Origin: Candidatus Rifleibacteriota bacterium
GTDB lineage: Bacteria > Muiribacteriota > Ozemobacteria > Ozemobacterales > Ozemobacteraceae
Direction: 5' to 3'
Assembly (NCBI GenBank): GCA_015232575.1
Contig: JADFZL010000003.1
Coordinates: 128,001-192,000, forward strand
Length of the DNA: 64,000 bases
Below are positions 2,204 through 26,332 of this stretch, piece by piece; positions within the stretch are counted from its first letter, which is position 1, and each line of letters starts with the position of its first letter. Position numbers and translations under genes: made by a program. The notes under the pieces were generated by a model. That model was given only the letters and a program-made list of their open reading frames with translations, did not search any database and was not told the DNA's origin.

Positions 2204-2597
2204 GAGTGACTGAAAAAAATGTCAGATGGCGATTACTAAAAAGAAATATATGAGAATAAGGCAAACAAAAAGTCCAGTGATTTACAACTGAAAAGTTCTT
2301 TAAAAAGTTATTCCATAAGGAGCAGACTAAGGTTCAATAGTTTCTCAAAGCGGAGGCAGACGATATTAAGGGCCGGACCCATAGAAAAGGGGAAGCCTGG
2401 ATCACCCGAACGACAGACGGTGATCACCTTGAGCAACTTTTTTGAACCAAAAAAGTTACGCTTTCAGGGGGAAACACATGATGTGCTTTTCCCCCTGGGG
2501 GTTTTCCGCTCGACCTGGACAGGTTGAGCCGGCATACGGTTTAAGGGAATAAACCGGAAGCCTGAAGGCGACTATGCCGCAAGGACAGGGTATCAAT

Positions 2598-5432
2598 ATG
2601 ATGAGATCTCTTTTCACAGGTGTTTCAGGCCTTAAGCAGCACCAGATTCGAATGGATGTGCTTGGAAACAATATAGCAAACGTTAACACACTGGCATTTA
2701 AAAAAGGTCGAGCTTTGTTTCAGGATCTTATGTCACAGACAGTGAGACATTCACAGCAATCAATGGGAAATATCGGTGGAACGAATCCTCAACAGATAGG
2801 ACTTGGAGTAAGGCTTGGCGCAATCGACACCCTCATGGATCAGGGCGCAATTGAAGGAACTGGTAAAAGTACTGACCTTGCTATTGAAGGTAACGGCTTT
2901 TTCGTAATAAAAAACGGATATGGCACCTACTCGTATACCCGTGATGGAAACCTTTCAGTTAACCCGAACTATGATTTAGTTGGAAGTAATACTGGTTTTA
3001 AAATGCAGGGTTGGCTTGCAACTCAGGATCAGGCGACAGGTGAACTCTCAATCAAACAGAATGCTGTAAATCCTTATGATTTGAATCTTACCAAATATCT
3101 GAAAAAAATGGCTCATAAGACCACAAATATCTCTTATGCCTCAAATCTTGACAGCTCTTCTGCTGAACGCGATGTAAAAATGGGCATGGAAAAGTTGGTT
3201 TTCAAAGATACCACCGGGGAATTTCAGAATCTCCAGGTTAAATTCAAAAAAATCGATGCACAGCATTGGGTCTGGAGTGCCACTGACGATACTGAAGGAA
3301 ACGTGGCAAACGGAAGCATTACCACAGATGCCGAAGGCAAAGTTATTGATACAACCGTTGAACCGATGGGTATTGGTGCAACAGTAGGAAAGCCTTACTT
3401 TACTTACGATCCTGATGGAACACCACTTCCGGCAACAGCAACAACTCTCATGAACAGCATGGGAAACACGGGTGATGGTTTTGCATCTGGAATTCAGGTC
3501 GATGGAACTGAGATCAAAGATGAAACAATAAAAGTAGTTTTTGACGGTGGTGATGCTGATCACGCAAATTCGTACCGTGTTGTCGGTTCAGAACGTGGAT
3601 TCATTGGTTCTGGCGTCATAGCCGGATCTCCAGCTAAGGCTGATGGCGTGGGAAACAAGCAGTTGGTTCTTGCAAACTGGACACCGGCAGCAACAGCATT
3701 CGATGTAGTTTTTCAGCGGGAAAGATATTCTGGTGATACTACTCCAGAGAACATTACAGCTACAATTCAATTCAATGCAGGACAACTGGTTGATGGAGTT
3801 GCAGAGACTAACAAATCGTTTACAACTTCAGCAATTATTGACAGAATGAATACTTCTTTAAAAGACAATGGTATACCGGCAACTGCATATTACGACTCTG
3901 TTCTTGGACAAATTTCAATATCAACAAATGCAACCGGAAGTAACCGCACCCTTCAGGTCTTAAATAGATCAGGACAGATTTCTGACCTGGGATTTACCCA
4001 GGATATTACAACTCAGGGAACTGGCATCTCTGCACCTGAGGCATGGGCTGAACTTCCAAATGAATTGAGTTCAAACCCATTTATCAGTTTCAATCCAACG
4101 TTTTCCTTCACAATTACCGACAAAGATGGAAGATCAGCTGCAGTAACATTTGATGCATCTGTTGGCGGCGTTGTTCAGACATACAATAAGAGTGATGTTC
4201 TGTCAAAAATTAATACTGCTCTGAGAAGTAACGATGTCAAGATTTCTGCTGAATTAATTGATTCCAACAATGATACTGAACCAGATCGCCTTGTACTTGT
4301 TGGGACCGACAAAGGTGCCGGAGAAAAAATTATTATATCAGGCGATCAGGCTACATTGCTTGCAAAACTTGGATTCAGGCCTAACACTGCTGCTGGTACA
4401 ACATTCCAGGCATATACCGGAACTCCAGGCGTTGCATCATTCAGTCAGGGCGGAGTTGACTTTACATTAACAGAAGGCAGTATACCCTGGAAGCCAAATG
4501 ATTCAATGGAAATGACCACAACCGCACAGAAGGGACAGGCTGAATCGGTTAACGTTTATGTTCCGACAGTCGATCAGGACACTCTTAATTTCAAAACTAC
4601 TGTTAATACACCACTTGGCCCTGAAACATTCACTATTACTGGTGCTGTCGAAAGAGGGGCAATTCATGACACAAGTATCAGAGTTTTTGATACACTTGGA
4701 AACGATCATGAGCTGGTCACTTCCTGGGAACATACTAATACTGAAACTAAAGAATGGGCTTATAAAATCACCTATTCTGAAGATGATCCCGAAATTACTG
4801 CCTGGCTCAAAGATCCTGCAAATGGTGTTGTTGATCCCGAAGATCCGACTGCAGATGATCTTGAACGTGCAAATGATGCATTGATTACCGAACGAAAAGG
4901 TACAATTTATTTTGGTACAAACGGAAAGATAGATCTTGGAAAATCAAATATTCCTGATATCCAATTTACTCCAAAGGGAAGCGATAAAATAAGTGTTTCT
5001 CTTGATATGGCACTTGCTACCCAGTATAGTTCAGCCTTTACAACCGCTGCCAGAGAGCAGGATGGTTATGAAATGGGAATGCTTGAGTCTGTAAGTTTTG
5101 AATCAGACGGAACAATCAGAGGTATTTATTCAAACGGACAAAAGCATCCAATCGGAAGAGTCGCACTTGCAACCTTTCAGAATTCATCGGGACTTGAAAA
5201 AACCGGAAAAAATCTTTACAATTCCTCTCCCAACTCCGGAACTCCTCTTATTGGTCAGGCGGGCTCTGGCGAACGCGGAACAGTGGTTCCTTCATCTCTC
5301 GAAATGAGCAATGTCGATATCGCGGAAGAATTCACGAACCTTATCATTACCCAGAGAGCATTCCAGGCTAACTCCAGAATTATTACCACATCAGACGAAA
5401 TTCTCCAGGAACTTGTAAACCTGAAACGTTAA
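2598..5432 (+). CDS. flgE: flagellar hook protein FlgE, giant variant (~944 aa)
   Basis: N-term MMRSLFTGVSGLKQHQIRMDVLGNNIANVNT and C-term NVDIAEEFTNLIITQRAFQANSRIITTSDEILQELVNLKR are canonical FlgE/FlgG rod-hook termini; a ~500-aa central insertion; ORF track start 2574, but MMRS at 2598 fits the family. Confidence 0.85.
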   Translation: MMRSLFTGVSGLKQHQIRMDVLGNNIANVNTLAFKKGRALFQDLMSQTVRHSQQSMGNIGGTNPQQIGLGVRLGAIDTLMDQGAIEGTGKSTDLAIEGNGFFVIKNGYGTYSYTRDGNLSVNPNYDLVGSNTGFKMQGWLATQDQATGELSIKQNAVNPYDLNLTKYLKKMAHKTTNISYASNLDSSSAERDVKMGMEKLVFKDTTGEFQNLQVKFKKIDAQHWVWSATDDTEGNVANGSITTDAEGKVIDTTVEPMGIGATVGKPYFTYDPDGTPLPATATTLMNSMGNTGDGFASGIQVDGTEIKDETIKVVFDGGDADHANSYRVVGSERGFIGSGVIAGSPAKADGVGNKQLVLANWTPAATAFDVVFQRERYSGDTTPENITATIQFNAGQLVDGVAETNKSFTTSAIIDRMNTSLKDNGIPATAYYDSVLGQISISTNATGSNRTLQVLNRSGQISDLGFTQDITTQGTGISAPEAWAELPNELSSNPFISFNPTFSFTITDKDGRSAAVTFDASVGGVVQTYNKSDVLSKINTALRSNDVKISAELIDSNNDTEPDRLVLVGTDKGAGEKIIISGDQATLLAKLGFRPNTAAGTTFQAYTGTPGVASFSQGGVDFTLTEGSIPWKPNDSMEMTTTAQKGQAESVNVYVPTVDQDTLNFKTTVNTPLGPETFTITGAVERGAIHDTSIRVFDTLGNDHELVTSWEHTNTETKEWAYKITYSEDDPEITAWLKDPANGVVDPEDPTADDLERANDALITERKGTIYFGTNGKIDLGKSNIPDIQFTPKGSDKISVSLDMALATQYSSAFTTAAREQDGYEMGMLESVSFESDGTIRGIYSNGQKHPIGRVALATFQNSSGLEKTGKNLYNSSPNSGTPLIGQAGSGERGTVVPSSLEMSNVDIAEEFTNLIITQRAFQANSRIITTSDEILQELVNLKR

Positions 5433-5936: not shown

Positions 5937-7466
5937 TCAGATCGGAAGTTTGTATTTTTCAATCTTTGTGCGTAGCGTATTTCTGGTAATACCAAGAAAA
6001 ATAGCTGTCTGCACCTGATTGTTTTTATTCATAGTAAGCGCCTGCATAAGCAATTCCCGTTCGATTATTCCCATAATTTTTTCGTGAGCTTCACCGGGTG
6101 ATTGCTGTAAAAGCACTTCCCTTACAAATGACGAAACCTGGTTCTGAATGGAATTCTGCACCGCAGTATTGCCTTCAGGGGCAGGACCAATCATTTTTGT
6201 GTGTTCATGTGTTGTAGGAGTTTCTTCTTTCTTTTCCTGGTCGAAATTTGAAATATTCGGTGATGGTTTTACGAAAAGAGAATGGTGAAAAACTCTTCGG
6301 GGGGAAGTTATTATTTCCGGCGGAAGATCTTCGGCCATTATCACCTGATCCCGGCTTAATGTATAAGCCTGATCAACAGAGTTCTTAAGCTCGCGGACGT
6401 TTCCGGGCCATGAATATGAAGACAGAAGTTTTATTGCTTCATCAGAAAGCTGTTTGGGCGGACCTTTTCGATTTCCAGACAGTTGTGCCATAAAGTAATT
6501 AGCAAGGACCGGTATATCTTCAACTCTGTTACGAAGAGGTGGCAATCTGATTTCTATTACTTTTATTCTGTGGAAAAGGTCGTCCCGGAATCTGTTTTCC
6601 TGAATATATTTGCGTAAATCTTTGTTTGTCGCTGCAATAATTCTGACATCAACTTTGATTTTGCGACTTCCACCGACCCTGACAATTTCTCTCTCTTCGA
6701 GTACTCTAAGAAGGTTTGCCTGCATTTCAAGGCTCATGTCACCAAGTTCATCTAAAAAAAGCGTTCCGCCCTGGGAAAGTTCGAATACGCCTGCTTTAGA
6801 ATTCTGTGCACCAGTAAAGGCACCCTTTTCATATCCAAAAAGCTCTGATTCCATGAGACTCTCAGCTACTGCTGTACAATTTATTGCCCAGAAAGGTTTC
6901 GATGACCGATTTGAATTATTGTGAATTGCCTGAGCAACAAGTTCTTTTCCTGAGCCAGATTCACCTGTTATCAGTACTGTAACGTCTTCAGCTGAAACTT
7001 TTCCGATGAGCTTGTAAACTTCCTGCATTGCCGGACTGTTTCCGATTAAACCGCCTGCTTTTAAAACGGCTGAAGGTTCAGTAAGCTCATTTCTTGTTGT
7101 ATTTCTTGCATGTAAACCTCTTGCAATAAGAGCAAGACAATCGTCTATATTAAAAGGCTTTGAGAGAAAATCATAAGCTCCAAATTTCATTGCAGTGACG
7201 GTTGTTTCCATATCGCTGTAGGCTGTCATCACAATTACTTGAGCATTTGGATCAATTTCACGGATTTTCTTAAGCACGGTAATGCCGTCCATTTCAGGCA
7301 TTCGAATATCCAGAAGTGTAATATCTGGCTTGAATGAAGAAAAAAGTGCCAGGCCTCTCAAGCCTGTCTCTGCAAGACCAACCTGATAACCGGCTCTCTG
7401 GAGTGCTCTCTCAAAAGCCCATCTTACGCTGTGTTCATCATCAATTACAAGTATCTTTGCGTTCAA
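5937..7466 (-). CDS. sigma-54-dependent response regulator (NtrC family: REC + AAA+ sigma-54 activator + Fis-type HTH)
   Basis: REC domain (VIDDEHSVR...DIRMPEMDG); Walker A GESGSGKE; GAFTGA sigma-54 contact motif; C-terminal HTH QTAIFLGITRNTLRTKIEKYKL; no cognate kinase adjacent. Confidence 0.9.
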   Translation of the reverse strand: MNAKILVIDDEHSVRWAFERALQRAGYQVGLAETGLRGLALFSSFKPDITLLDIRMPEMDGITVLKKIREIDPNAQVIVMTAYSDMETTVTAMKFGAYDFLSKPFNIDDCLALIARGLHARNTTRNELTEPSAVLKAGGLIGNSPAMQEVYKLIGKVSAEDVTVLITGESGSGKELVAQAIHNNSNRSSKPFWAINCTAVAESLMESELFGYEKGAFTGAQNSKAGVFELSQGGTLFLDELGDMSLEMQANLLRVLEEREIVRVGGSRKIKVDVRIIAATNKDLRKYIQENRFRDDLFHRIKVIEIRLPPLRNRVEDIPVLANYFMAQLSGNRKGPPKQLSDEAIKLLSSYSWPGNVRELKNSVDQAYTLSRDQVIMAEDLPPEIITSPRRVFHHSLFVKPSPNISNFDQEKKEETPTTHEHTKMIGPAPEGNTAVQNSIQNQVSSFVREVLLQQSPGEAHEKIMGIIERELLMQALTMNKNNQVQTAIFLGITRNTLRTKIEKYKLPI

Positions 7467-8458
7467 GAATTCTTTTCCTCCTGATCTTCTTCAAGTAAAT
7501 CATTTTTATCATCGCTCTCTTCGTTTGCCTCGAATTCGTCTTCTGAAAAGGACGTGCTTCCGCGGCGGTTAATATTATCAAGCGGGTCAAAAATTCTGTC
7601 ACCATATAGAAATATTATTTTGTAATCTGGCTGTTTTTTATTTATTTCCCGGATAATCATCTGCTTGACATCATCGACAGAGTATCTCAGAGAAAGGTGA
7701 AAAAGAAGAAGGTTTTTTACTCTTCCTTTTTGAGCTGTTTCCATAACTTCAGAAAGTATTGAATGCTGCTGAAAATTTCTTTCATCGTCGTCGGGGTGAA
7801 GATATGTGCTTTCATGGCAGAGAAGGAGACTGTCTTTGAACATGTTATGGTCTATCGGACGTGAATCTCCACCATACGTGAAAATTATCTGTTCAAAAGA
7901 TTCAGATACGTTGTCCTTGCCTGAACTCCATATTGCTTTATTTATTTCTTCCTGAGATTTTCCGACAAATTCTGCTTTCAATCTGCGTCTGAATTCGACT
8001 ATGTTATATCCCAGACTGAGCTGTTTATGAGAATGCATCGTTCGGAAAGTCTTGATAAAAGTCTTTCCACGCTTCTGGTCAAGTTCAATTTTTTCTTCAA
8101 CGTCAAGCGGTTTCCATTTCAAATTGAAAGAAAGTTCGCTCTGAGTAAGAGAAAGATAGTTCTGAACCCTTTCTATGAGAATATTGTTTTTTGGATAATA
8201 AATATCCAGGCCGGCCGTTTGGTCGCCAGCTCCGAGATTTCTTATGTTTACAAGGTTTACAAGTCCAGCTATGTGGTCAATATGTCCGTGTGATAAAAAT
8301 ATCTTTCTTATTCCAAATACCCTGTTAAGAAGGCTGGTAGCAACGCCTTCTCCAGCATCGAATAACAGATTGAAACGTCGAAGGTATATCCATGTAGAAA
8401 ACAGTGCCCGGGAAAACCCTTTAAAAGGTTCCTGCATTGGAAGAATTAATCGGCTCAT
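7463..8458 (-). CDS. metallo-beta-lactamase-fold hydrolase (RNase Z/ElaC-like) with acidic C-terminal tail
   Basis: HGHIDHIAGL (HxHxDH) motif; start corrected to the ATG overlapping the pilT stop (TGATG); its own stop overlaps the regulator start (ATGA); D/E-rich tail. Confidence 0.6.
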   Translation of the reverse strand: MSRLILPMQEPFKGFSRALFSTWIYLRRFNLLFDAGEGVATSLLNRVFGIRKIFLSHGHIDHIAGLVNLVNIRNLGAGDQTAGLDIYYPKNNILIERVQNYLSLTQSELSFNLKWKPLDVEEKIELDQKRGKTFIKTFRTMHSHKQLSLGYNIVEFRRRLKAEFVGKSQEEINKAIWSSGKDNVSESFEQIIFTYGGDSRPIDHNMFKDSLLLCHESTYLHPDDDERNFQQHSILSEVMETAQKGRVKNLLLFHLSLRYSVDDVKQMIIREINKKQPDYKIIFLYGDRIFDPLDNINRRGSTSFSEDEFEANEESDDKNDLLEEDQEEKNS

Positions 8459-9516
8459 CAGATTTCCTTGAAAGCAGTCGGATTTTTTACTTTGGATAGT
8501 GCAACATCGTAAGAGATTATTCCTTTTTGATATAAATCTTTGAGACATTTGTCCATTGATATCATTCCATGCTCTGAACCTGTTTGGATAAATGTATCAA
8601 TCTGACTCAGTTTGTTTTCTCTGATCAGCCTTCTTACTGCTGGTGTGGCAATCAGGATTTCATAAGCAAGAACACGACCTTTCTTCTCAACATTTGGAAG
8701 AAGTTGCTGACAGACAATTCCCTGAAGAGAACTTGCAAGCTGAACCCTTATCTGATCCTGTTGATGAGGCGGGAATACATCAACTATTCTGTCGATAGTC
8801 TGTTGGGAGTCATTTGTATGAAGAGTTGTAATTACAAGATGACCCGTTTCAGCAGCAGTTATTGCAGTAGAAATAGTCTCAAGATCGCGCATTTCTCCCA
8901 CTACAATGATATCGGGATCTTGTCTGAGAACATGTCTCAAAGCAATATTAAAACTGTGTGTATCTGAATAAACCTCCCGTTGAAGTATAACCGATTTCTT
9001 GTGCTGGTGCAAATATTCTATTGGGTCTTCGACAGTAATAATTCTGCAGCGCCGTTCCTGGTTGATCTGATCAACCATTGAATTAAGAGTCGTTGTTTTA
9101 CCCGAACCAGTCGGACCAGTGACAAGTACCAGACCGTTTGGCCTGCGAACAATTTCAAGAGCAGCTTCAGGCAGTCCGAGCTGAGTAATTGAAAGAACTT
9201 CTGGTGAGACAATTCTGAATGAAGCTTCGGTATAATTTCTTTCTTTAAATATGTTTACTCTGAATCGTCCAATTTCTTTGAGAGTAAATGAGAAGTCGAG
9301 TTCCCAGTCTTTTTCAAATTTTACTATCTGATCAGTATTTAATGCTGAGTAGACCAATGTCTGACAGGTTTCCTGATCAAGATTGTCGAAAGGCAGAGCA
9401 ATAATTTCGCCGTTAATTCTGGCCATTGGAGGTAATCCGACTGAAAGGTGCAGATCAGAAGCGTGTCGCTCCTGACAATGCTTTAATAATTTATCAAGAC
9501 TTAAAGTTAAAAACAT
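8458..9516 (-). CDS. pilT: type IV pilus retraction (twitching motility) ATPase PilT
   Basis: ASDLHLSVGLPP; Walker A GPTGSGKTTT; Walker B DIIVVGEMRD; His box TLHT; start taken at MFLTLSLDKLLK (internal Met of the longer ORF), with an AGGAAAAAG RBS upstream. Confidence 0.85.
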   Translation of the reverse strand: MFLTLSLDKLLKHCQERHASDLHLSVGLPPMARINGEIIALPFDNLDQETCQTLVYSALNTDQIVKFEKDWELDFSFTLKEIGRFRVNIFKERNYTEASFRIVSPEVLSITQLGLPEAALEIVRRPNGLVLVTGPTGSGKTTTLNSMVDQINQERRCRIITVEDPIEYLHQHKKSVILQREVYSDTHSFNIALRHVLRQDPDIIVVGEMRDLETISTAITAAETGHLVITTLHTNDSQQTIDRIVDVFPPHQQDQIRVQLASSLQGIVCQQLLPNVEKKGRVLAYEILIATPAVRRLIRENKLSQIDTFIQTGSEHGMISMDKCLKDLYQKGIISYDVALSKVKNPTAFKEI

Positions 9517-9575: not shown

Positions 9576-10499
9576 TCAATTTTTAAGTAGGTTTTTAATT
9601 CTTTCTGGCGGCCATGCTATTTCATCAACACGCATTATATTAGAAATATTAATAGACAATGGCTTTCCATTAAAGAGAATACCTATTGAATCACTGGCTA
9701 TCTTAACAGGATCCTCTATTGATTTGAACGACTCAGCAACTTTTCCAGAAATTTTGATTTTGTTGTTCGTATGCATTATTGCAGTAATTGATTCATCTTC
9801 AAATGGAATTTTTCCATTGACAAAAAGTGTTTTGTCTTTTATTTGCATTAAATCATTTTCAACCGCACAAACTCTCTCTATATTATAATTCCAAATAACT
9901 ATGCTTCCGGGTTTTAGATCATTTTTTGCAGGATTATGCGTGATTAATATGGTATCGTAAGGTTGTATCAGCGGTGAATAATAATCAGCAAATATTCTCT
10001 CTGCACGACGGTTGCCGGTACCGAGGATTGTCAATATGTGCAGCTGAAAAAAAATTACCGTTACAAGCATTGCCGCAAATATAGGATAACTGATGAGGGA
10101 AAAAGCGCCTGCTTTCTTTAACGGCTGAGTATAGACATCAAAATATATAAAAAAGAGAAAGATTGCTGCGCCAATAAAAATATATTGGCTGAAAGGTGAA
10201 TATATATAATAATACCCATAAAATGCTGTAAATGCTGTAACTACGAGCGCTGACGCACCTTTAACCTTCTGGCCGAGCACAAGGTGTCCAAGTCCGGGGC
10301 ATAGAAAAGATAAAAATAGCACTTGCAGTGCTGTATTTCTTAAAGTATCGGGTATTTTGGATGTGACGGTATTAGAAGATAGTTTTTGAACGAAATTCTG
10401 CCACTTCAGCGAAATATTCGAAATAAAATTCCTATCCTTCTTTCGAGGCGGCTCAAAATCCATTACATCACTGTTTTTAGTGTTGCGAAAACCACACAA
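9576..10499 (-). CDS. membrane protein with C-terminal signal-peptidase-I-like (S26) domain; catalytic Lys position apparently Glu
   Basis: ~5 predicted TM helices, then YSPLIQPYDTILI (cf. SMxPTLxxGD) and NIERVCAVENDLMQIKDKTLFVNGK (cf. YIKRVIGLPGDTVEIKDG.LYINGK) and a C-terminal WPP; TTG start per the ORF track, with an internal ATG 12 codons in. Confidence 0.3.
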   Translation of the reverse strand: MCGFRNTKNSDVMDFEPPRKKDRNFISNISLKWQNFVQKLSSNTVTSKIPDTLRNTALQVLFLSFLCPGLGHLVLGQKVKGASALVVTAFTAFYGYYYIYSPFSQYIFIGAAIFLFFIYFDVYTQPLKKAGAFSLISYPIFAAMLVTVIFFQLHILTILGTGNRRAERIFADYYSPLIQPYDTILITHNPAKNDLKPGSIVIWNYNIERVCAVENDLMQIKDKTLFVNGKIPFEDESITAIMHTNNKIKISGKVAESFKSIEDPVKIASDSIGILFNGKPLSINISNIMRVDEIAWPPERIKNLLKN

Positions 10500-10730
10500 C
10501 GGGCATAACAGTGTGTCTGAACGAATTACATTACCGCATTTTGTACAATTAATACTTGTTCGCCACCTTTCTTCACCGGATGTATTAAAACAAGGTCATT
10601 TTTTAATTTAATGGTATAGGAATTTTCATTTTAGTTATGCGTGCTTCCTAAAATCATAATATGAATTCAAACTGTCTTGTAACGATTTCAGATTCATTGT
10701 TTTCCAGGGTGCATTACCGTATTTTATGCT

Positions 10731-10796
10731 GTCATTTCGACCGAAGGTAGAAATCTCGTCTTTTCTATTTGATCTCTCCCTTCGGTCGAGATGACA
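10731..10796. repeat. palindromic intergenic repeat, family 1, copy A (~66 bp imperfect hairpin)
   Basis: gtcatttcgaccgaaggtagaaatctcg...gatctctcccttcggtcgagatgaca; related copies at 33155-33218, 45515-45579 and 57497-57545. Confidence 0.8.
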
Positions 10797-10863
10797 ATAA
10801 ATAGTCCGCCCGGAGGGCGTTAATTTAACAGCCAGTAGAGTTGATAATTTAATAGATTATTTG

Positions 10864-11064
10864 TCAATATTTTGTTTTTACAGTATTGTCAATTGTTACC
10901 GGGTTATAATATTCACTCGAAAACTTTTTTTCCTTAACTTTTCCGCTTAAGAGCTCCTGAAACATTTTCATATAATCATCGCAGGCCTTTCCGAAGCCTT
11001 CCAGCGTGATATTTACCTGCCCATCAGGAGCTATTGTAACTTGTATTTCTTCCTTCTTTGGCAT
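10864..11064 (-). CDS. small DUF2997-like protein
   Basis: MPKKEEIQVTIAPDGQVNITLEGFGKACDDY resembles the DUF2997 pattern (M..i.i.i..dG.v.i...G..G..C); this family typically partners DUF1257 and a Ycf46-like AAA ATPase. Confidence 0.35.
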   Translation of the reverse strand: MPKKEEIQVTIAPDGQVNITLEGFGKACDDYMKMFQELLSGKVKEKKFSSEYYNPVTIDNTVKTKY

Positions 11065-11128
11065 ATCGTTCTCCTTTAACTCTTTCAGTTTAATTGTTTT
11101 CTAACCTTCGGTTTAGAAATGTTCATAA

Positions 11129-11935
11129 TCATTTGACAAAAAGACCCTTGACCCAACTGAAAACTTTTGAAAAAAGACTCTTGTTTATTGCTCTGCAATA
11201 AGCATCATTATATTTTTTATTTACCGGCGCAAGTTTGTTTGCGCGTGAAAAAGATTCTTCGGCGGCAGAATGCAGGTTTAGTCTGTTCTGAATAACACCA
11301 AGCAGATAATATATTTCTGGTAAATCCGATTTTTTTGACAGAGCTTTCTGTAAGACCGGAATTGCTTTCTCGAATAATGGGGTGTTACTGTAACTCTGGG
11401 CAATTTTAAAGAATACCAGCCAGTCGTTTGGCAACAATTCAATTGCTTTCATCATGCAGAATTCGGCATTATTGCCTTTCGTAAGTGCAATAATTTCACC
11501 TCTTGCGATCCATGAAAACCATGAAACATTATCATTTTTCATTGCTCCATCAGAAAAAGCCATGGCATCTTTGAGATTAGCATCTCTTGCTGATGCAAGT
11601 GCCCTTGCTGAAATAATATTCGCGCTTTTTGGAAATAACTTATTTGCTTTTATTGACCAGGTAAGTGCTTCAGGAATTTCTTCAAGATCAAGAAGGCAGA
11701 GAAGCTGTCCAAACCAGGCTTCCTCAATATTTGGATCTATTCCAAGAACTTTTGAATAGTATTTCAAAGCTCTTTCATATTCAAGTTTCCGGTAGTTCTC
11801 ATCTGCAAGACGTAGAACATGCCCGGGATTTGTTAAATCAACTCCGGCCGTTTCAGAATTTCCAGGAAGCTTGTCAAATCCATCTGTTTTCCTGTTTTCC
11901 GGAGAATCAAATTCCAGCCACTTGAATCTGCTCAA
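11129..11935 (-). CDS. TPR-repeat protein
   Basis: multiple TPR-like helical repeats (ALKYYSKVLGIDPNIEEAWFGQ...). Confidence 0.5.
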   Translation of the reverse strand: MSRFKWLEFDSPENRKTDGFDKLPGNSETAGVDLTNPGHVLRLADENYRKLEYERALKYYSKVLGIDPNIEEAWFGQLLCLLDLEEIPEALTWSIKANKLFPKSANIISARALASARDANLKDAMAFSDGAMKNDNVSWFSWIARGEIIALTKGNNAEFCMMKAIELLPNDWLVFFKIAQSYSNTPLFEKAIPVLQKALSKKSDLPEIYYLLGVIQNRLNLHSAAEESFSRANKLAPVNKKYNDAYCRAINKSLFSKVFSWVKGLFVK

Positions 11936-12013
11936 ACTTTTTCACCTGCCATTCGATCTATAACATTCATATCCTGATCAAAAAATCCAAATCCAAAATC
12001 ACAAATCTTTTGA

Positions 12014-12129
12014 CACTGTAGCAACGTTACTGAAGAAAAGATATATCTCACGCAGAGATGCAGAGGCACAGAGAAAAGCAGAGGGAAAATCGTGTTATTT
12101 TTATATCTGCTTAGCAACATTGCTACAAT
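12014..12129. mobile_element. MITE-like element, family 3, copy 1 (terminal inverted repeats CACTGTAGCAACGTTACTGA / TAGCAACATTGCTACA)
   Basis: shares termini and the internal ATATCTCACGCAGAGA core with 59562-59654; no coding capacity. Confidence 0.65.
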
Positions 12130-12210
12130 CTCAATCTCTTATCCCTTATCTTACAATCTTAAATCTTACAATCCAAAATCTTACAATCCAAAATCTCTTA
12201 ATCTTGAAGC
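12130..12210. repeat. short tandem repeat (ATCTTACAATCC, period ~15, 3-4 units)
   Basis: atcttacaatcttaa / atcttacaatccaaa / atcttacaatccaaa read directly. Confidence 0.6.
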
Positions 12211-12270
12211 TTGAAAATCTGCGTAATCTGCGGACAAAAATCTTTTCTCGTCTCGTCTTTTCTTTTAATC

Positions 12271-12723
12271 CTATTTCCAGCGGCTTACCGTAAGCCGAAT
12301 TGTTTTATCCTCAGAAACTTCTTCTTTTGTAACCGCAAAGCCTTTTCTTTTCATTTCGGCTGTAATTTTCTGGTAAGCATACTGTTGGGCTATTCCATTG
12401 AGAAGATTCTTTCCGAGGAATTCAAGTTCAGCCTCACTTTTATTTACCCCATTGACCCGCATTTGGCAGTCACCTCTGCCCGTCTTTTCAAATACAACTG
12501 AAAAGCCGTTTCCCTGAAAACAAACACTTTCGCCCTCATCAATTGTGTCTGCCAGAGCGTAATTCGAAGACAATGGAATCTCAGCTTCGCATTCCGAATT
12601 GACCTCAGTCATTTGATCACTGCCGACACGACTCATTCCATAGGCTATTCCGGCGACCGTTGCAGCAGCAACAAAGGCGGGCCAGCCGACTATTACCGGC
12701 ACCATAACTACAAATCCTGACAT
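12271..12723 (-). CDS. DUF1257-like (Ycf35-like) protein with N-terminal TM helix
   Basis: C-terminal LLNGIAQQYAYQKITAEMKRKGFAVTKEEVSEDKTIRLTVSRW resembles the conserved DUF1257 C-terminus (recollection); adjacent to the AAA ATPase. Confidence 0.35.
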   Translation of the reverse strand: MSGFVVMVPVIVGWPAFVAAATVAGIAYGMSRVGSDQMTEVNSECEAEIPLSSNYALADTIDEGESVCFQGNGFSVVFEKTGRGDCQMRVNGVNKSEAELEFLGKNLLNGIAQQYAYQKITAEMKRKGFAVTKEEVSEDKTIRLTVSRWK

Positions 12724-12735
12724 AGTATCCTCCTT

Positions 12736-14367
12736 TTATATCTCAAGTGCACGATGAGTGCCAATACGCTGAAAACCGTGCTGTCCAGCTGATGCAGGTC
12801 TTGCTCTTTCCATTGCCCAGTTTCTCAATTCATCAATTTCTTCTTTCATTGTTTTTGAAAGAGGGAATGTTTCTTCGAGAGCGCTTATTATATATTCGGA
12901 ATTCAGTTCATTGCCCGAATTGAAAGCTTCGTAAAGAGCAGACGATATCGCCTCTTCAATTTCTGAGCCAGAAAAGCCCTCAGAAGCCTTTGCAAGGTCT
13001 TCCATATTGAAATTTCCCGGGTTTCTGCTTTTCTTTTTTATATGAATTTCAAAAATCTTTTTTCTTTCTTCAGAATTTGGAAGGTCAACAAAGAAAATGT
13101 CATCAAATCTTCCTTTTCTGAATAACTCAGGTGGCAAATCTTTTATTCTGTTCGAGGTAGCAATTACAAAAACCGGAGAAGTTTTTTCCTGAAGCCAGGT
13201 AATAAATGTTCCAAAAACACGGCTTCCGACGCCACTGTCGCCCTGACCACCTGACTGCATGCCAGAAAAGGCTTTCTCGATTTCATCTATCCAGAGTATT
13301 GCCGGAGCTACTGATTCAGCTGTTTTTATTGCACGTCTTACATTTTCTTCACTTGAACCGACCAGACTTGAAAAAATTCGCCCCATGTCAAGTTTTAGAA
13401 GCGGAACATTCCAGAGACTGCTTATTGCCTTGGCTACAAGACTTTTGCCACATCCCTGTACACCCAGAAGTAATATTCCCTTTGGCGGAGTGCATCCGAA
13501 GGCTCTGGCCTTTTCGGAAAAAGCATGAGATCGCTTCAGCAGCCAGTCTTTAAGGTTTTCAAGACCGCCAACATTGCTTATTGCTTCTGTTGTTGGATAA
13601 TATTCAAGAATGCCGCTTTTTTTGATTATCTGTTCTTTTTCGCTGTGTATGGCCTTTAGATCTTCTCCGTCCAGACGTCGCCTGGAGATCAAAGTTCTGG
13701 CGAGAACATTTTCAATCTCATTTAGAGTCAGACCCTGACAGGCTTTTGCAAGTTTTTCAAGCTCAATTGGATTAAGGTTTATTTTTACCTGAGGATTATT
13801 TTTTACAAGACCTATCATTTCATCAATCTTATTTGATACTTCGGCAGGTGTCGGGAAACCGAATTCAGCTACTGTTATTTCTTTTTCCAGTTCGCAGGGA
13901 ATTTTAAGTATTGGTGAAATAATTATAAGCGTTCTTGGACTATCCCTCAAAAATGAGGCCAATTCACGCATTCTTCGTATAATTGATACGTTGTCAAGAT
14001 ATGGGTGGTAATCCTTAAAAATATAAATGGCATTTTCAAGACTTTCGAATATTCCTTCGATAGCTTCCTGTGGGTCGCGTGTTGATTGCGATATATTCTT
14101 TTTGCTCTGAAAGTCTGTTCCGTAAGGAAGCAATCCACGGGTGATTGACCATGTATAACATTTCTTGTTCTGAGCCCTCGATAATTGGAAAATAAGTTTT
14201 TCGATTCTCTCTTCTTCATGAGAAACAATGTAAAGAATTGGATACTTGGCTCTTATGAGAACATCAATATTTGAATAAAATCCGGAATTCATTACCGGTT
14301 CTTTTTCAGGTAATGGGGTTGGATTTTGATTTGGTTTACTTTTTGTTGGATTGCTTTCTGCGGACAT
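12736..14367 (-). CDS. AAA+ family ATPase, Ycf46-like (single C-terminal AAA domain)
   Basis: Walker A GVQGCGKSL; Walker B ILWIDEIEKAF; sensor/arginine region ATSNRIKDLPPELFRKGRFD; ~280-aa N-terminal domain. Confidence 0.8.
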   Translation of the reverse strand: MSAESNPTKSKPNQNPTPLPEKEPVMNSGFYSNIDVLIRAKYPILYIVSHEEERIEKLIFQLSRAQNKKCYTWSITRGLLPYGTDFQSKKNISQSTRDPQEAIEGIFESLENAIYIFKDYHPYLDNVSIIRRMRELASFLRDSPRTLIIISPILKIPCELEKEITVAEFGFPTPAEVSNKIDEMIGLVKNNPQVKINLNPIELEKLAKACQGLTLNEIENVLARTLISRRRLDGEDLKAIHSEKEQIIKKSGILEYYPTTEAISNVGGLENLKDWLLKRSHAFSEKARAFGCTPPKGILLLGVQGCGKSLVAKAISSLWNVPLLKLDMGRIFSSLVGSSEENVRRAIKTAESVAPAILWIDEIEKAFSGMQSGGQGDSGVGSRVFGTFITWLQEKTSPVFVIATSNRIKDLPPELFRKGRFDDIFFVDLPNSEERKKIFEIHIKKKSRNPGNFNMEDLAKASEGFSGSEIEEAISSALYEAFNSGNELNSEYIISALEETFPLSKTMKEEIDELRNWAMERARPASAGQHGFQRIGTHRALEI

Positions 14368-14472
14368 CGGCTTTCCTCATTTCCATTGTGTTTACTCTAT
14401 ATACATTCTAACTTTTTTACTGATAAAAAGTAAAGTTGAGTTTTGCATATTTTAAATCTCAAAAATATTCCC

Positions 14473-14505
14473 AAAAAAAAACCCCCGGATTTTGAAAACC
14501 GGGGG
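14473..14505 (-). terminator. rho-independent terminator (CCCCCGG...CCGGGGG followed by a T9 run on the minus strand)
   Basis: aaaaaaaaacccccggattttgaaaaccggggg; lies ~230 nt downstream of the 14737-15342 gene. Confidence 0.7.
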
Positions 14506-14736
14506 CAAAGTGAGAGGATCTTTTGAGAGGAATCGGTACCTCACGGAAACCGCGAGGTAAATATAGCAATACTTCAAATGAATACGTAAATCTCGAATAA
14601 ATTCGAGGTATTCACGAAGTAAAATTTCAAAGACCGATGTAATTATATAAGCAATTTGCGTGCCAACATAAAACAACCATTTTCAGCCATTTCCAATAGT
14701 GTAAAAAAAATGCACACGTGCAAAAAATGCACGCGA

Positions 14737-15342
14737 TTATATGACCGACAAAGGAACTGAAAGCAGTGATGACAAACGCTTTCCAAGTAGTTCGAGCTTT
14801 TTTAACTCACTTGTACCAGATGAATTGATTGGAATAATTTCGCCTTTAACTGTTTCCAGAGAAAGAATGAAATAATCGTTCTTCCCAGAGATAATAAGCT
14901 TTTTAATGCTTTTTATGTATAATACAAGTCTTGCATTTGTTTTGATATATCCTTTAAAGCCGCATATATCGTTTATTATTATCTGGTCATCAGCGGGGTT
15001 ATATTCAATAACAGGGTAAAATCCGTAATGAATCATCATTGGAATAACAAGTTCTTTCAGGAAATACCTTATAAAAAAGAAAATAAGGAGCATTGATACA
15101 CCAAAAACAATCAATACCGGTGTTGCGGTTTTGTTCTGATGCAGGAAGAAAATGGTTGCAAGTGTTGGAATTCCACAACAAATCAAGAGAATCAGTTCTG
15201 TTGATTTGCTGATAGAATGGTCTGTCAGTGGAATCTTCTGAGAAATCTTTGCCAGCAGTTCTTTATTCAAAAGAATTTTCCTGTGTAGTTTTAAGTATCT
15301 TCCCAATAATTCAGGGCAACTGCATTTTTTATTCATCTGCAT
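14737..15342 (-). CDS. hypothetical membrane protein
   Basis: two or three hydrophobic helices; no recognisable motifs. Confidence 0.4.
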   Translation of the reverse strand: MQMNKKCSCPELLGRYLKLHRKILLNKELLAKISQKIPLTDHSISKSTELILLICCGIPTLATIFFLHQNKTATPVLIVFGVSMLLIFFFIRYFLKELVIPMMIHYGFYPVIEYNPADDQIIINDICGFKGYIKTNARLVLYIKSIKKLIISGKNDYFILSLETVKGEIIPINSSGTSELKKLELLGKRLSSLLSVPLSVI

Positions 15343-15544
15343 TGCTCAGTTGGCAAATATCTGATAGATTAGAGCCTGCAAGATTCGTTGATTATAGCAT
15401 TTTTTTCCAAATTGAACTATCAGGAATATTAGCAGTGCAGGACAAACAGGGGCGACCGCGTCTGAAAAGGTTATCTTATGATCGTTTGATGAAACGGATA
15501 CGTTTGCCAGGATTATTTGCAGAAGAATCCATCTGGAGGAATTT

Positions 15545-17404
15545 ATGACAGCAGATGTAATATTGATCGGTTTGAATACCAGGCACACTCATTGTAGTCT
15601 ATCCCTGGCCTTGTTGCAGGCTTTCTGGGAAAAAGATCCTTCGAATCCGAGAATAGAACGAATTGATTTTGATTTGAATCAGGGAAACGATTCGATTATT
15701 CAGAATATTGTTCTGAAAAAGCCCCGGTTGCTTGGTTTTTCTGTATATATATGGAATCTTATTTCCGCTGCAGCAATAAGCGGTTCAGTTAAAGCAGCTC
15801 TTCCTGATGTTAAAATTATTTTTGGAGGTCCGGAAGTCTCATTTGATTCAGAAAGAATTTTTTCATTGGCTCCCTGGGTTGACCTCATAGTCAACGGGGA
15901 AGGGGAAGAAACTTTTTCTGAGATACTTTCTTCTTTTTTTGCAGATAAGTCAATGTTTGATGGAATTGCAGGTACTTCAGTTTTCAGAAATGGACAGTTG
16001 ATACAAAATCCTCAAAGGAAGCTTATTTCGGACCTTGATTCTTTACCTTCAGCATTTTCGGCTGGATATTATGGAACAGGAAAAGGTTTTACGTATTACG
16101 AAGCCTCACGTGGATGTCCTTTTAAATGTGCATATTGTTTAAGTTCAGTATTGGGTCCGGTAAGGAATTTTTCACTTCAGAGAGTTAAAGACGATCTTGA
16201 CTGGTTTTTCCAGTCAGATTATTCTCAGGTTCGTTTTGCTGATCGGACATTCAATCTTGATAATCAAAGAGCTGAGAATATTGTCAAATACATTCTCGAG
16301 AAAAATTATAAAAAAATCTGTTTCCATTTTGAGTTGAAACCGGAAATTCTTACTGATTCATTTATCGAATTGCTTGGACATGCAGACCCCGGTTTATTTC
16401 ATCTCGAAATCGGTGTTCAGAGCACCAATCCCGAATCACTTGAAGCTGTATCAAGAAAAAGTGATCCTCAGAAACTGGCAGAAAGAATTCAATGTTTGAG
16501 AGACAGAACAAAGTGCCATGTTCATCTGGATTTACTTGCCGGTTTGCCGGGTGAAAATTTTGAACTTTTCAAAAAAACTTTAAATGATGCACATTCCTGG
16601 AAAGTTAGTACTATTCAGGTTGGATTAGTAAAAGTGTTAAAGGGAACTGCACTTGAAAATTCTGTAAGGGATGGATCACTTTCTGTTGCGCCTTTTCCGC
16701 CGTATTCCGTTCAGAGGAGTAAATGGCTCACTTCAGAGGAAATAATTCGAATTCAGGATATCGGAAAGCTGGTTGAAGGTATTGGAAACTCTGAAAGGTA
16801 TAATTTAAGTCTGAATTTTATCTGTAATTTCCTTTTCAAATCTGACTGGGCTGAATTTTATGATTCTCTTGCGTTTTTCTGGAGAAAAACCGGAAAGCAG
16901 TTTTTTGCACTGAGTCCGGAAAATATTAAAAAGGCATTGAGTGAACATCTCAGTGAGGTGTCAAAAGATTCTGACATTACTTGTGCCGCCGATTCGCTTT
17001 TAACACATGAATTGCGTTTAATTCAGAAAGTTCCGGCAGGAAAAGCCGGACCAGTGCCGATTGTTCCTAATCTTTCCGGCCGTCCGCTTGTGAAAAAAAC
17101 GAATGGTTATAAAACATTCTGGTACAATGTTGATGTTCAGGAACTAATAGAATGTAACAAAATAGCAATTTTACCATCTCCAGTTGTTTATCACTACCAG
17201 ACAGATCTTTCGCTTCCTCCTGACAGCAGTATGTATTTTCTTCCGATTGAGGATCGTTTTTTAATGGCACTTGCAGATCAGGTTGATACTGTTGATACCA
17301 TTTGTGAGATCTGGAATCAGCAGAAACGCGCATCCAGAAGTTCTGATTTTTTTCTAAACTCTCTGGACAAACTTATTGAAAAAGGTTTACTATCTAAGCG
17401 ATAG
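15545..17404 (+). CDS. B12-binding domain radical SAM protein (DUF4080-type)
   Basis: N-terminal B12-binding Rossmann segment; CPFKCAYC (Cx3Cx2C) radical SAM cluster motif; ~620 aa, typical of the family. Confidence 0.85.
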   Translation: MTADVILIGLNTRHTHCSLSLALLQAFWEKDPSNPRIERIDFDLNQGNDSIIQNIVLKKPRLLGFSVYIWNLISAAAISGSVKAALPDVKIIFGGPEVSFDSERIFSLAPWVDLIVNGEGEETFSEILSSFFADKSMFDGIAGTSVFRNGQLIQNPQRKLISDLDSLPSAFSAGYYGTGKGFTYYEASRGCPFKCAYCLSSVLGPVRNFSLQRVKDDLDWFFQSDYSQVRFADRTFNLDNQRAENIVKYILEKNYKKICFHFELKPEILTDSFIELLGHADPGLFHLEIGVQSTNPESLEAVSRKSDPQKLAERIQCLRDRTKCHVHLDLLAGLPGENFELFKKTLNDAHSWKVSTIQVGLVKVLKGTALENSVRDGSLSVAPFPPYSVQRSKWLTSEEIIRIQDIGKLVEGIGNSERYNLSLNFICNFLFKSDWAEFYDSLAFFWRKTGKQFFALSPENIKKALSEHLSEVSKDSDITCAADSLLTHELRLIQKVPAGKAGPVPIVPNLSGRPLVKKTNGYKTFWYNVDVQELIECNKIAILPSPVVYHYQTDLSLPPDSSMYFLPIEDRFLMALADQVDTVDTICEIWNQQKRASRSSDFFLNSLDKLIEKGLLSKR

Positions 17405-17467
17405 TGTTATTCAGTCCGGTCGTTGAGCAAATTAGAAACATGGTTAAACCCTGAAATTCTTGCCAAC

Positions 17468-17700
17468 GGCAGAGAGCACAAAATGCTCGACTGCAGGGAG
17501 TGATAGAGTTGTCCTATTGTTTATTCATCTGATAGAACTTGAGGGGAGAGCACAAAGTCCTCGACCACGGGGAGTGAGACGGATATACTATTGCTTATAT
17601 GTCCGATAGCACTTCAGCGGAGAGCACAAAGTGCTCGACCGCGGGGAGTGAGACGGTCGAACTTGTTCGACCGGCGAGAGGGGGCGCGTGCCCCCTCTCT
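17468..17700. repeat. family 2 repeat: three tandem 74-nt units, each with a GAGCACAAAGTGCTC hairpin, followed by two perfect GC hairpins (CCGGTCGAACTTGTTCGACCGG; GAGAGGGGGCGCGTGCCCCCTCTC); ends 20 nt before the fmdB start
   Basis: units start at 17470, 17544 and 17618; a second copy (one unit plus hairpins) lies at 40160-40250 upstream of pncB. Confidence 0.8.
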
Positions 17701-17720
17701 AAAAAGCAGGGGGTCAGAAA

Positions 17721-17987
17721 ATGCCTTTTTATTCATATCGTGCAAAAAACGTTGAACAATCTTGCCAAAATTGTGCAGAGGAGTTCGATTGCTTTCAGAA
17801 AATTAATGAAATGCCGGTTGAAACATGTCCGGAGTGTGGAAATCAAGTTGTGAGAATTATGCATGCAACTCCAACCGTTAAAGACAGTTCAGAAAAGAAA
17901 ACTTTGTCAGATGATAACCTGAAAAAACACGGGTTCAAAAAATTTGTAAATCGTGGACATGGCAAGGGTTATGACGAGGTTGTCTGA
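17721..17987 (+). CDS. FmdB-family zinc-ribbon protein
   Basis: MPFYSYRAKN..CQNC....CPECG matches the FmdB/TIGR02605 pattern (MPIYEYRC..CGHxFE...........CPxCG). Confidence 0.6.
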   Translation: MPFYSYRAKNVEQSCQNCAEEFDCFQKINEMPVETCPECGNQVVRIMHATPTVKDSSEKKTLSDDNLKKHGFKKFVNRGHGKGYDEVV

Positions 17988-18632: not shown

Positions 18633-18962
18633 TTAGGCTGAAAGTTGATTTGTAAACCTTTTTTCCAGTTTAAGGATTCTGAAGACGCTTTTTATGTCTT
18701 CGGAAGCTCCGATAACTGAAACACGACCGCCTGATTTTTTCATCAAATTACCTGTCGAAACGAGCAGATCAATTCCGTTTGAATCAAAAATCTTAACCCT
18801 CTCAAGGTCGAAAACAATCTCTTTTGCAGATTCAGCAAGCAATGGTTGGATTGCAGATCTGAGATGAGTAATGTTGCTTGCATTAATATTCTCAGATAAT
18901 TTTACTATTGTTTTGCCTTCCTCTTTACTAATTTCGTAAAGCCGTTCCATGGTGTCCTCCAA
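18633..18962 (-). CDS. STAS-domain anti-sigma-factor antagonist (SpoIIAA-like)
   Basis: 109 aa; STAS fold pattern with a DSNGIDLL phosphorylatable-Ser region. Confidence 0.7.
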   Translation of the reverse strand: MEDTMERLYEISKEEGKTIVKLSENINASNITHLRSAIQPLLAESAKEIVFDLERVKIFDSNGIDLLVSTGNLMKKSGGRVSVIGASEDIKSVFRILKLEKRFTNQLSA

Positions 18963-25286: not shown

Positions 25287-25289
25287 TTG

Positions 25290-26327: not shown

Positions 26328-26332
26328 AGGCT

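Follow-up and report, generated by a model that had tools for sequence, protein, structure and literature searches.

We analyzed a 64-kb stretch of DNA from a Candidatus Rifleibacteriota bacterium (contig JADFZL010000003.1, positions 128,001 to 192,000), referred to here, in its whole length, as the window. Its interval 5937..9516 consists of three open reading frames (ORFs), all on the minus strand, encoding the motor ATPase PilT (8458..9516, 352 residues, ATG start at 9516), a metallo-beta-lactamase (MBL) fold protein assigned below as a tRNase Z (7463..8458, 331 residues), and a sigma-54-dependent response regulator (5937..7466, 509 residues, TTG start). The pilT stop codon (TGA, 8460..8458) and the tRNase Z start codon (ATG, 8458..8456) have one base in common in the motif TGATG (8456..8460, minus strand; minus-strand letters across the junction, GGAAATCTGATGAGC), and this 1-nt overlap recurs in the related loci L002, L085, and L087. 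Fifteen aligned homologs all begin at the position of ATG 8458, and this N-terminal alignment ruled out a longer ORF starting at 8548. At the second junction, the tRNase Z stop codon (7465..7463) and the regulator's TTG start (7466) overlap by 4 nt in TTGA (7463..7466, minus strand; letters across, AGGAGGAAAAGAATTCTTGAACGCAAAG). TTG 7466 is the earliest possible start in its frame, lies 10 nt downstream of AGGAGG, and yields the canonical N-terminus MNAKILVIDDEH. A first-pass annotation of this DNA had read the TGATG junction in the same way, but the ATGA that it gave for the second junction is in fact TTGA with a TTG start. In relatives, the spacing between the tRNase Z and regulator genes varies between an 8-nt overlap and a 16-nt gap in loci with gene calls, and tblastn gaps stay below ~90 nt in loci without gene calls. 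The three genes are closely packed, and their co-transcription is very probable, as the first-pass annotation had also held.

Gene order was compared across 13 Riflebacteria-like loci (the window, L001, L002, L005-L011, and L085-L087). The window's MBL protein is 100% identical to a protein encoded on a 558-kb contig of a Candidatus Riflebacteria metagenome-assembled genome. In all 13 loci the tRNase Z gene is followed by the regulator gene, adjacent and on the same strand, and the regulator, 62-77% identical to the window copy, is conserved at least as well as the enzyme. No such regulator was found beside the Thermotoga-type tRNase Z in 46 comparison loci of other phyla, which include Thermotogae, Bipolaricaulota/Acetothermia, Atribacteria, Caldisericota, and some Planctomycetota and Lentisphaeria, and whose tRNase Z proteins are 40-46% identical to the window enzyme. 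In L003 and L004, the tRNase Z gene lies back-to-back with a seryl-tRNA synthetase gene, among housekeeping genes. The flanks of the pair are less constant. pilT precedes the MBL gene in 5 of the 13 loci (the window, L002, L005, L085, and, in split form, L087); L001 and L086 lack the pilT-linked block and have a divergent DUF1232 gene directly beside the MBL gene; and the window and L085, a 74% identical relative, are the only loci in which flagellar hook genes come after the regulator. At the level of gene order, these comparisons showed that the stable unit is the tRNase Z gene plus the regulator gene, specific to this phylum, and that pilT is a subclade-specific upstream neighbor arriving with its block.

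As a gene arrangement, the pairing of a tRNase Z and a sigma-54 activator is new. The earlier view that the three-gene arrangement is not a standard one holds for this lineage-specific pairing but not for the enzyme, which is of an ordinary kind. Two outcomes had been named in advance as counting against an unusual trio, namely its absence from relatives and a clear assignment of the MBL protein to a housekeeping RNase Z, and they largely describe what we found: the tRNase Z assignment is clear and the full trio occurs in 5 of 13 loci, while the tRNase Z-regulator pair occurs in every one. A strictly conserved pair of an RNA-processing housekeeping gene and a sigma-54 activator offers a handle on regulation in a phylum that has no cultured representative. 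One of the 13 loci, L010 (JAZRWI010000058.1), is labeled Candidatus Avigastranaerophilus sp. and carries a Riflebacteria-type pair with 56% (tRNase Z) and 62% (regulator) identity; this contig may be mis-binned.

The MBL protein as a Thermotoga-type tRNase Z

Searches with the MBL protein revealed TIGR02650, the Thermotoga-type ribonuclease Z, as the best NCBIfam model, with 223 bits over positions 4-277 of 277. By phmmer against the PDB, residues 14-291 matched residues 5-279 of 280 of the Thermotoga maritima tRNase Z (1WW1, E = 2.8e-64), and a profile built from 16 family members matched 1WW1/2E7Y with E = 3.4e-96; bacterial-type RNase Z structures ranked after these, with E values of ~1e-12 to 1e-19. 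The protein was modeled by AlphaFold2 with a mean predicted local distance difference test (pLDDT) score of 80.7, residues 1-9 and 297-331 scoring below 50. The best Foldseek match of the model was 2E7Y (target-normalized template-modeling score 0.89, root-mean-square deviation 2.5 Å, 37% identity), followed by other RNase Z structures, with Apyc1-type phosphodiesterases ~20 orders of magnitude weaker. The RNase Z-like character proposed in the first-pass annotation was thus borne out over the full length, in both sequence and predicted fold.

Enzymes of the T. maritima type (TM type) are recognized by a short (~30 residues), basic, Lys/Leu-rich arm without a GP motif, by the absence of a PxKxRN loop, and by residues other than Gln at the positions of S31/T33 (PMC3161902). 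The HxHxDH motif of the MBL protein reads LSHGHIDH, and H57, H59, D61, H62, D198, H215, and H254 are invariant in 16 homologs, with H142 nearly so. Its short arm, RRRLKAEFVGKSQEEINKAI, gives an ungapped alignment with that of T. maritima, RRKLKKEFQGLDSKEISRLV, and no GxPxGP motif occurs anywhere in its sequence. The N-terminus, FKGFSRALFSTWIYLRRFNLLFDAGEGVATSL, contains no PxKxRN motif, and the motif I positions equivalent to S31/T33 are occupied by Ala and Ser, both non-Gln. By sequence and modeled fold, the MBL protein is clearly assigned as a TM-type short tRNase Z, and the notion that it is out of the ordinary gave way to a full set of TM-type features. The assignment clarifies the annotation "MBL fold metallo-hydrolase" carried by this protein in Riflebacteria. 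It also extends this minor enzyme type, earlier known from T. maritima and plants (PMC3161902), to Riflebacteria, alongside the uncultured phyla Bipolaricaulota, Atribacteria, and Caldisericota.

The T. maritima tRNase Z cleaves CCA-containing precursors after A76 (PMC1540738). In the contigs that carry the small RNA described below, the three tRNA genes found (two of them independent) all have CCG after the discriminator base, that is, a partial encoded CCA (L147 6536..6611, minus strand; L119 1685..1760, plus strand; L149 504..577, minus strand; Ala-GGC twice and Gln-UUG). In a sample of three, too small for a conclusion, this observation fits a TM-type tRNase Z; a partial encoded CCA has been reported in chloroplasts, whose tRNA genes are served by an enzyme of this type.

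The MBL protein ends in an acidic tail (EDEFEANEESDDKNDLLEEDQEEKNS), as described in the first-pass annotation, but this is not a family feature: in the homolog alignment, the tail is basic or absent in other lineages. Residues 297-331, which make up the tail, are predicted by AlphaFold2 to be disordered. Being neither conserved nor predicted to be ordered, the acidic tail was dropped as a functional feature.

The strict pairing raises an alternative in which the MBL enzyme, instead of being the housekeeping tRNase Z or in addition to that role, would serve the regulator as a dedicated partner, processing or degrading the sigma-54-dependent small RNAs or their targets or hydrolyzing a signaling nucleotide, with co-translation being functionally required. 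Such a partnership would explain why the pair, with its tight junctions, is kept in 13 of 13 loci and in this phylum only. It would also accommodate scores below the RNase Z equivalog cutoffs, the weak matches of the protein to Apyc1 and to a cyclic-nucleotide phosphodiesterase model, a nearby small-RNA family that would need maturation or turnover, and the small-RNA copy in L149 that abuts a tRNA gene. Nevertheless, we consider this alternative quite unlikely, given a full-length homology to the T. maritima enzyme in which the tRNA-binding arm and all the catalytic motifs are kept, and given that the Apyc1-type matches trail so far behind. Furthermore, orthologs in other phyla are found in housekeeping contexts, JGI annotates the orthologs of the MBL protein as ribonuclease Z, and no second candidate for a tRNA 3' endonuclease was seen, although whole genomes were not searched.

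The orphan regulator, pilT, and the sigma-54 promoter survey

The regulator comprises the Pfam domains Response_reg (E = 5.5e-31), Sigma54_activat (E = 2e-72), AAA_lid_14, and HTH_8 (E = 3e-10), and both GESGSGKE and EKGAFTGA occur in its sequence. D9, D10, D53, T81, K103, and the Walker A motif do not vary among six orthologs, nor do GAFTGA and the recognition helix NQVQTA..LGITRNTLR.KI. The protein thus has all the residues required to be phosphorylated (D53), to hydrolyze ATP, to contact sigma-54 (GAFTGA), and to bind DNA. By its domains and motifs, the protein is a canonical NtrC-family enhancer-binding response regulator of the REC–AAA+–helix-turn-helix (HTH) architecture. Its best NCBIfam score was obtained with ntrC (TIGR01818, 510 bits against a cutoff of 559); other scores were those with LuxO (361 against 800), FlgR (327 against 750), FlbD (308 against 750), and RtcR (308 against 650), and it stays below every named-equivalog cutoff among NtrC, AtoC, ZraR, LuxO, FlgR, FlbD, and RtcR. 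An RtcR-like logic, in which a sigma-54 activator stands beside RNA-repair enzymes, was rejected on the basis of this low RtcR score and of a receiver domain in place of a CARF-type domain.

No HisKA/HATPase_c or rpoN domain was found in the Pfam-scanned ORFs of the window (at least 120 residues beyond 16 kb, plus selected shorter ORFs nearer the operon), and no kinase or rpoN gene appears in the gene tables of relatives around the regulator orthologs. The description of the regulator as an orphan NtrC-type protein with no kinase nearby was therefore upheld for the window ORFs scanned. It is also the sole sigma-54 activator in the window.

PilT scored 466 bits against TIGR01420 (cutoff 319; model positions 2-341 of 343), thereby passing the PilT/PilU subfamily cutoff, and also matched Pfam T2SSE; these matches identify it as a PilT/PilU-family hexameric ATPase. 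The PilT proteins that precede the MBL gene in L002, L005, and L085 are 73-82% identical to it. In L087 (9078..9998), pilT upstream of the MBL gene was recovered in two tblastn pieces with an ORF of only 125 residues, and may be a pseudogene or an assembly frameshift. The window's pilT is accompanied by a co-oriented upstream block (9576..14367, minus strand) defined by Pfam matches and comprising genes for an AAA ATPase (Ycf46-like, 12736..14367), a DUF1257 protein (Ycf35-like, 12271..12723), a TPR protein (11129..11935), a DUF2997 protein (10864..11064), and a 307-residue membrane protein (9576..10499), all on the minus strand. The order AAA/DUF1257/TPR/DUF2997 is the same in L002, L085, and L087, and this block precedes pilT wherever the flank is visible; in cyanobacteria, DUF2997 and DUF1257 are also neighbors, together with fed7 (PMC4284462).

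No pil genes are among these neighbors; a pseudopilin-like cluster is located 14 kb off and a HEAT-T2SSE ATPase gene 32 kb off. The cluster (23468..29518, minus strand) encodes TPR proteins, a single protein bearing an N-terminal methylation motif, and three proteins without a Pfam match, one of 1061 residues and two smaller. The ATPase gene (41831..44635, plus strand) encodes a 934-residue protein in which N-terminal HEAT repeats are fused to a T2SSE/PilB-type ATPase domain, an unusual architecture for the family. On the other side of the operon, plus-strand flagellar genes (fliK, flgD, a TIGR02530 gene, flgE encoding 952 residues, and flbD) adjoin the regulator gene in convergent orientation, in agreement with the hook genes reported there by the first-pass annotation. 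FlgE is very long in both the window (2574..5432, plus strand) and L085 (12975..15911), with 952-978 residues, including an insertion of ~500 that separates the conserved regions D1 and D2.

The sigma-54 promoter pattern TGGCAC-N5-TTGCW was scanned over the window and gave a single perfect match, the -24/-12 element TGGCACGCAAATTGCT at 14650..14665 (minus strand, zero mismatches), for which perfect equivalents are found at L085 3717 and L086 19193. Two further matches have one mismatch each. The first, TGGCACTCATCGTGCA (12748..12763, minus strand), is located within the 3'-terminal part of the AAA gene, immediately ahead of the DUF1257 start, and no counterpart was found in L085. The second, TGGCATGAATATTGCT (19249..19264, minus strand), lies 287 nt upstream of a STAS-domain gene (18633..18962) whose product is anti-sigma-antagonist-like; a palindrome, TCTGCAATAAATGCAGA, is located at 19381..19397, ~120 nt further upstream, and this element may be the target of a different activator, with a long leader. 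No GG-N10-GC element akin to the sigma-54 consensus was detected in the window upstream regions of flgE, flgD, pilT, the 307-residue protein gene, the TPR gene, the 1061-residue protein gene of the pseudopilin cluster, or the HEAT-T2SSE gene, nor in the L085 upstream regions of fliK, flgE, and pilT. Sigma-54 control of flagellar, pilus, or pseudopilin genes was therefore dropped.

These results bear directly on the proposal that the regulator controls flagellar or pilus genes, in other words, that it is a FlgR/FlbD- or PilR-type motility regulator acting on the hook operon or on type IV pilus/pseudopilin genes, its linkage to pilT being the remnant of a pilB-pilT-pilC-pilS-pilR-type cluster. 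The position of pilT directly upstream and of hook genes directly downstream in the window and L085 speaks for such a role, as do the matches to the FlgR (E 1e-97) and FlbD (E 1e-91) models and a T2SSF/PilB operon 7 kb away in L086. However, the corresponding genes in the window and L085 have no -24/-12 element, the flagellar operon is convergent with the regulator gene rather than divergent from it, and the FlgR and FlbD scores are far under their cutoffs and under the generic NtrC/AtoC scores. Moreover, flagellar adjacency is missing in 11 of the 13 loci and pilT in 8 of them, and the regulator is still 62-67% identical there. A motility role is thus very unlikely. The promoter search that the first-pass annotation had suggested, run here on the window and the related loci, placed the perfect site not at motility genes but before a candidate small RNA.

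A candidate small-RNA family and its relation to the regulator

The perfect sigma-54 promoter, located 5 kb upstream of the regulator gene, is flanked by the AAA gene and by a gene for a 201-residue membrane protein. About 135 nt downstream of it lies CCTCTCAAAAGATCCTCTCAC, followed by a GC hairpin and T9. We identified here a candidate sigma-54-dependent small RNA of ~165 nt (14473..14641, minus strand), composed of a hairpin, an invariant stretch (CCUCUCAAAAGAUCCUCUCAC, 14510..14530, minus strand), and an intrinsic terminator (14473..14505, minus strand), with a minimum free energy of -54.7 kcal/mol (z = -6.2). The AAA gene starts 110 nt past the terminator, behind a sigma-70-like promoter (14434..14405) that is kept in L085, which indicates that the small RNA is transcribed as a separate unit. 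In support of a conserved small-RNA gene, L085 and L086 have a perfect promoter, the identical 21-mer, and a terminator, the latter locus at 65% protein identity and with a differing gene arrangement around the small RNA.

Copies in relatives were located at L085 3717..3882, at L086 19193..19521, and in L088-L172. A 19-mer scan of metagenome contigs retrieved 85 stretches, nearly all directly followed by a terminator, and 51 of them have a sigma-54 promoter (at most two mismatches, mostly none or one) 106-340 nt upstream; TGGCAC-N5-TTGC with no or one mismatch is present in 48 small-RNA copies (43 distinct). A covariance model of the 3' 99 nt detected 82 copies (57 distinct) in the fetched loci, nearly all of which are metagenome contigs, and revealed second copies in L089, L116, and L133; some genomes are multi-copy. 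In the alignment fitted to this covariance model, pairing reaches 89% in the terminator and in the hairpin that precedes the invariant stretch. Compensatory cells number 168, compared with 49±7 after shuffling, and the covariation score is 0.57, compared with 0.17 for shuffles and no more than 0.12 for slid partners. An independent MAFFT/RNAalifold run found compensatory changes in 6 of 9 pairs; full-length consensus folding, for which the alignment was too gappy, did not recover the long-range helix. The family architecture, 140-370 nt in total size, consists of tandem GTGYR-N5-YRCAC dyads, TGGCAC-N5-TTGC, a variable 5' domain, the covarying hairpin, the invariant UCCUCUCAAAAGAUCCUCUCACUUU, and the terminator. 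Pairing is possible between a conserved 5' box, AGUUCUUUGAAAA, and the spacer that separates the two CCUCUC motifs of the small RNA.

No Rfam 15 family reached its gathering threshold. The best sub-threshold match was RF00519 (suhB/MmgR; 27.9 bits against 41, E = 7e-4), and further ones were NsiR1, anti-hemB, and the betaproteobacterial toxic small RNA, which have anti-Shine-Dalgarno-type motifs. Our literature search found nothing on the three-gene operon or the small RNA in Riflebacteria. Within the scope of Rfam 15 and the literature that we searched, the family is undescribed; by its sequence design it belongs to a known kind, that of sigma-54-dependent small RNAs with anti-Shine-Dalgarno-type motifs. 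Exact 8-mer complements of the invariant stretch were found in the window only in the small-RNA gene itself and once in fliK, which is at chance level, and no targets were identified in this way.

In the window, two tandem dyads, GTGCA-N5-TGCAC and GTGCA-N7-TACAC (14699..14732), lie 34-67 nt upstream of the -24 element and represent a candidate activator-binding (enhancer) site. Of 36 distinct promoters of the family, 19 are preceded by a dyad of this class at a distance of 66-91 nt, with an expectation of 0.009 per 150 nt. All 26 combinations of dyad and promoter in ~2 Mb of fetched loci precede the small RNA, and none precedes a protein-coding gene. The constant neighbors of the small RNA are genes for the 201-residue membrane protein, a B12-binding radical-SAM/DUF4080 protein, and a Zn-ribbon protein; in the window this module (14737..17987, with the radical-SAM/DUF4080 gene divergent and the last gene matching Zn_ribbon_8) flanks the small RNA, as it does in ~20 metagenome loci. 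In L149 (578..672, minus strand), a small-RNA copy ends 1-2 nt before a tRNA-Gln gene, and read-through would yield a small RNA–tRNA co-transcript. This small-RNA family with its own enhancer motif may matter more than the operon, and it would provide a concrete sigma-54 regulon in anaerobic-digester and aquifer bacteria.

We tentatively regard the nearby sigma-54 promoter of the small RNA as the regulator's most plausible local target, an assignment about which our doubts prevail. The regulator is the only sigma-54 activator in the window, its HTH does not vary across the phylum, which would fit a conserved DNA target, and two independent arrangements (that of the window and L085, and that of L086) keep the small RNA 5-7 kb from the regulator gene. 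The chance of this proximity is ~1% by a crude estimate that assumes about five copies per 5-Mb genome. It is more doubtful that the tRNase Z-regulator pair controls a Qrr-like circuit specific to Riflebacteria, the regulator binding the GTGYR-N5-YRCAC dyads as dedicated activator of the multi-copy small RNAs; an extension in which the co-translated tRNase Z matures or turns over these small RNAs is more speculative still. Two simpler links were sought and dropped. Systematic adjacency of small RNA and pair is not seen, no copy lying within 10 kb in ten of the 13 loci, and no specific activator stands beside the other small-RNA copies, where a sigma-54 activator of any kind lies within the flank in three loci only, each time as a 44-47% identical paralog 5-7 kb away.

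Alternatively, the three genes might be functionally unrelated, their adjacency and overlaps reflecting compact packing and the regulator's targets lying elsewhere in the genome, with no relation to the window. The place of the three products in unrelated processes, the variable adjacency of pilT and flagellar genes, and a small RNA that is usually distant from the pair would agree with this. It is an unlikely account, as the tRNase Z-regulator junction outlived extensive rearrangement on both flanks in 13 loci, and as two independent arrangements keep the small RNA near the regulator gene, at the crudely estimated chance of ~1%.

The reading that we find probable, with some reserve, is that of an ordinary polycistronic string whose core is a TM-type tRNase Z and an orphan NtrC-family activator, with pilT and its block appended upstream in one subclade; the interval 5937..9516 forms the 3' end of this minus-strand string. 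Under this reading, the three genes would be read from one mRNA, and the stop/start overlaps would couple their translation. The tRNase Z, a predicted zinc-dependent MBL-fold endonuclease, would trim the 3' trailers of pre-tRNAs while tolerating an encoded CCA; its role would be housekeeping tRNA maturation, and its pairing with the regulator an inherited operon arrangement with no dedicated pathway. The regulator would be phosphorylated by a kinase encoded elsewhere and would activate sigma-54 promoters from upstream dyad sites, the nearby small RNA being the best local candidate. Several points weigh against this picture. The tRNase Z score of 223 bits is under the TIGR02650 equivalog cutoff of 507, and by this measure the protein is a divergent member of the TM type and not a strict equivalog of a model trained on Thermotogae. 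By the covariance model, only 3 of 13 loci have a small RNA less than 10 kb from the pair, and the small RNA consistently adjoins the genes for the 201-residue membrane protein and the B12/radical-SAM protein instead. We infer a single mRNA and translational coupling solely from the spacing of the genes. Finally, the retention of the pair throughout the phylum at ~55-75% protein identity hints at selection for co-expression, beyond a purely historical account.

Comparison with known systems

PilT, the tRNase Z, and the regulator are each, by sequence, members of known families. The puzzle raised by the first-pass annotation is largely resolved as ordinary, and for the operon itself the outcome is mainly a clarified annotation; the lead to a phylum-specific small-RNA circuit is real but circumstantial. 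The window enzyme resembles the T. maritima tRNase Z (1WW1/2E7Y, TIGR02650) in its full-length alignment, its fold, the HxHxDH motif and other metal ligands, the short basic arm without a GP motif, and the lack of PxKxRN. It differs in carrying a 35-40-residue disordered C-terminal tail of variable charge, and in being co-operonic with a sigma-54 activator, an association not seen in Thermotogae or the other phyla examined. Its identity to 2E7Y in the structural alignment is 37%.

The pilT-containing part of the string recalls the pilus clusters of Geobacter and Myxococcus, in which pilT and the sigma-54 regulator gene pilR belong to one pilB-pilT-pilC-pilS-pilR-pilA cluster. As in these clusters, pilT in the window closely precedes a gene for a sigma-54 response regulator. 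In contrast, the window string has no pilS kinase, pilB, pilC, or pilin gene, no sigma-54 promoter was found before the pilin-like genes, and pilT is missing from most of the regulator loci. Like NtrC, AtoC, ZraR, and LuxO, the window regulator combines REC, AAA+ (GAFTGA), and Fis-type HTH domains with all phospho-acceptor residues. Unlike these, it has no adjacent kinase or phosphotransfer gene, it contains a long low-complexity linker before the HTH, and its gene partner is a tRNase Z.

Dedicated small-RNA targets encoded near a sigma-54 activator are known from LuxO–Qrr in Vibrio and Pxr/Nla19 in Myxococcus. The combination of dyad, promoter, and small RNA described here has, in our analysis, the layout of such a dedicated activator–small-RNA regulon, as in LuxO/Qrr. 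The shared features are a REC–AAA+–HTH activator and multi-copy small RNAs with sigma-54 promoters, an invariant single-stranded stretch before the terminator, a dedicated dyad found only at the small-RNA promoters, and a copy a few kb from the activator in three loci. The Riflebacteria small RNA has no sequence similarity to either Qrr or Pxr; the regulator reaches only 361 of the 800 bits required by the LuxO model, and the adjacency of activator and small RNA is not systematic, unlike in LuxO–Qrr (Qrr/LuxO is also described in 10.1101/2021.07.01.450815). A second point of comparison is MmgR (RF00519, suhB clan), a small RNA with an anti-Shine-Dalgarno motif that is activated by NtrC in Sinorhizobium (PMC7143759). 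The two have in common CU-rich unpaired motifs followed by a terminator, and they differ in that the Riflebacteria small RNA is 165-330 nt long, carries CCUCUC-N7-CCUCUC instead of CCUCCUCCC, and belongs to a different phylum.

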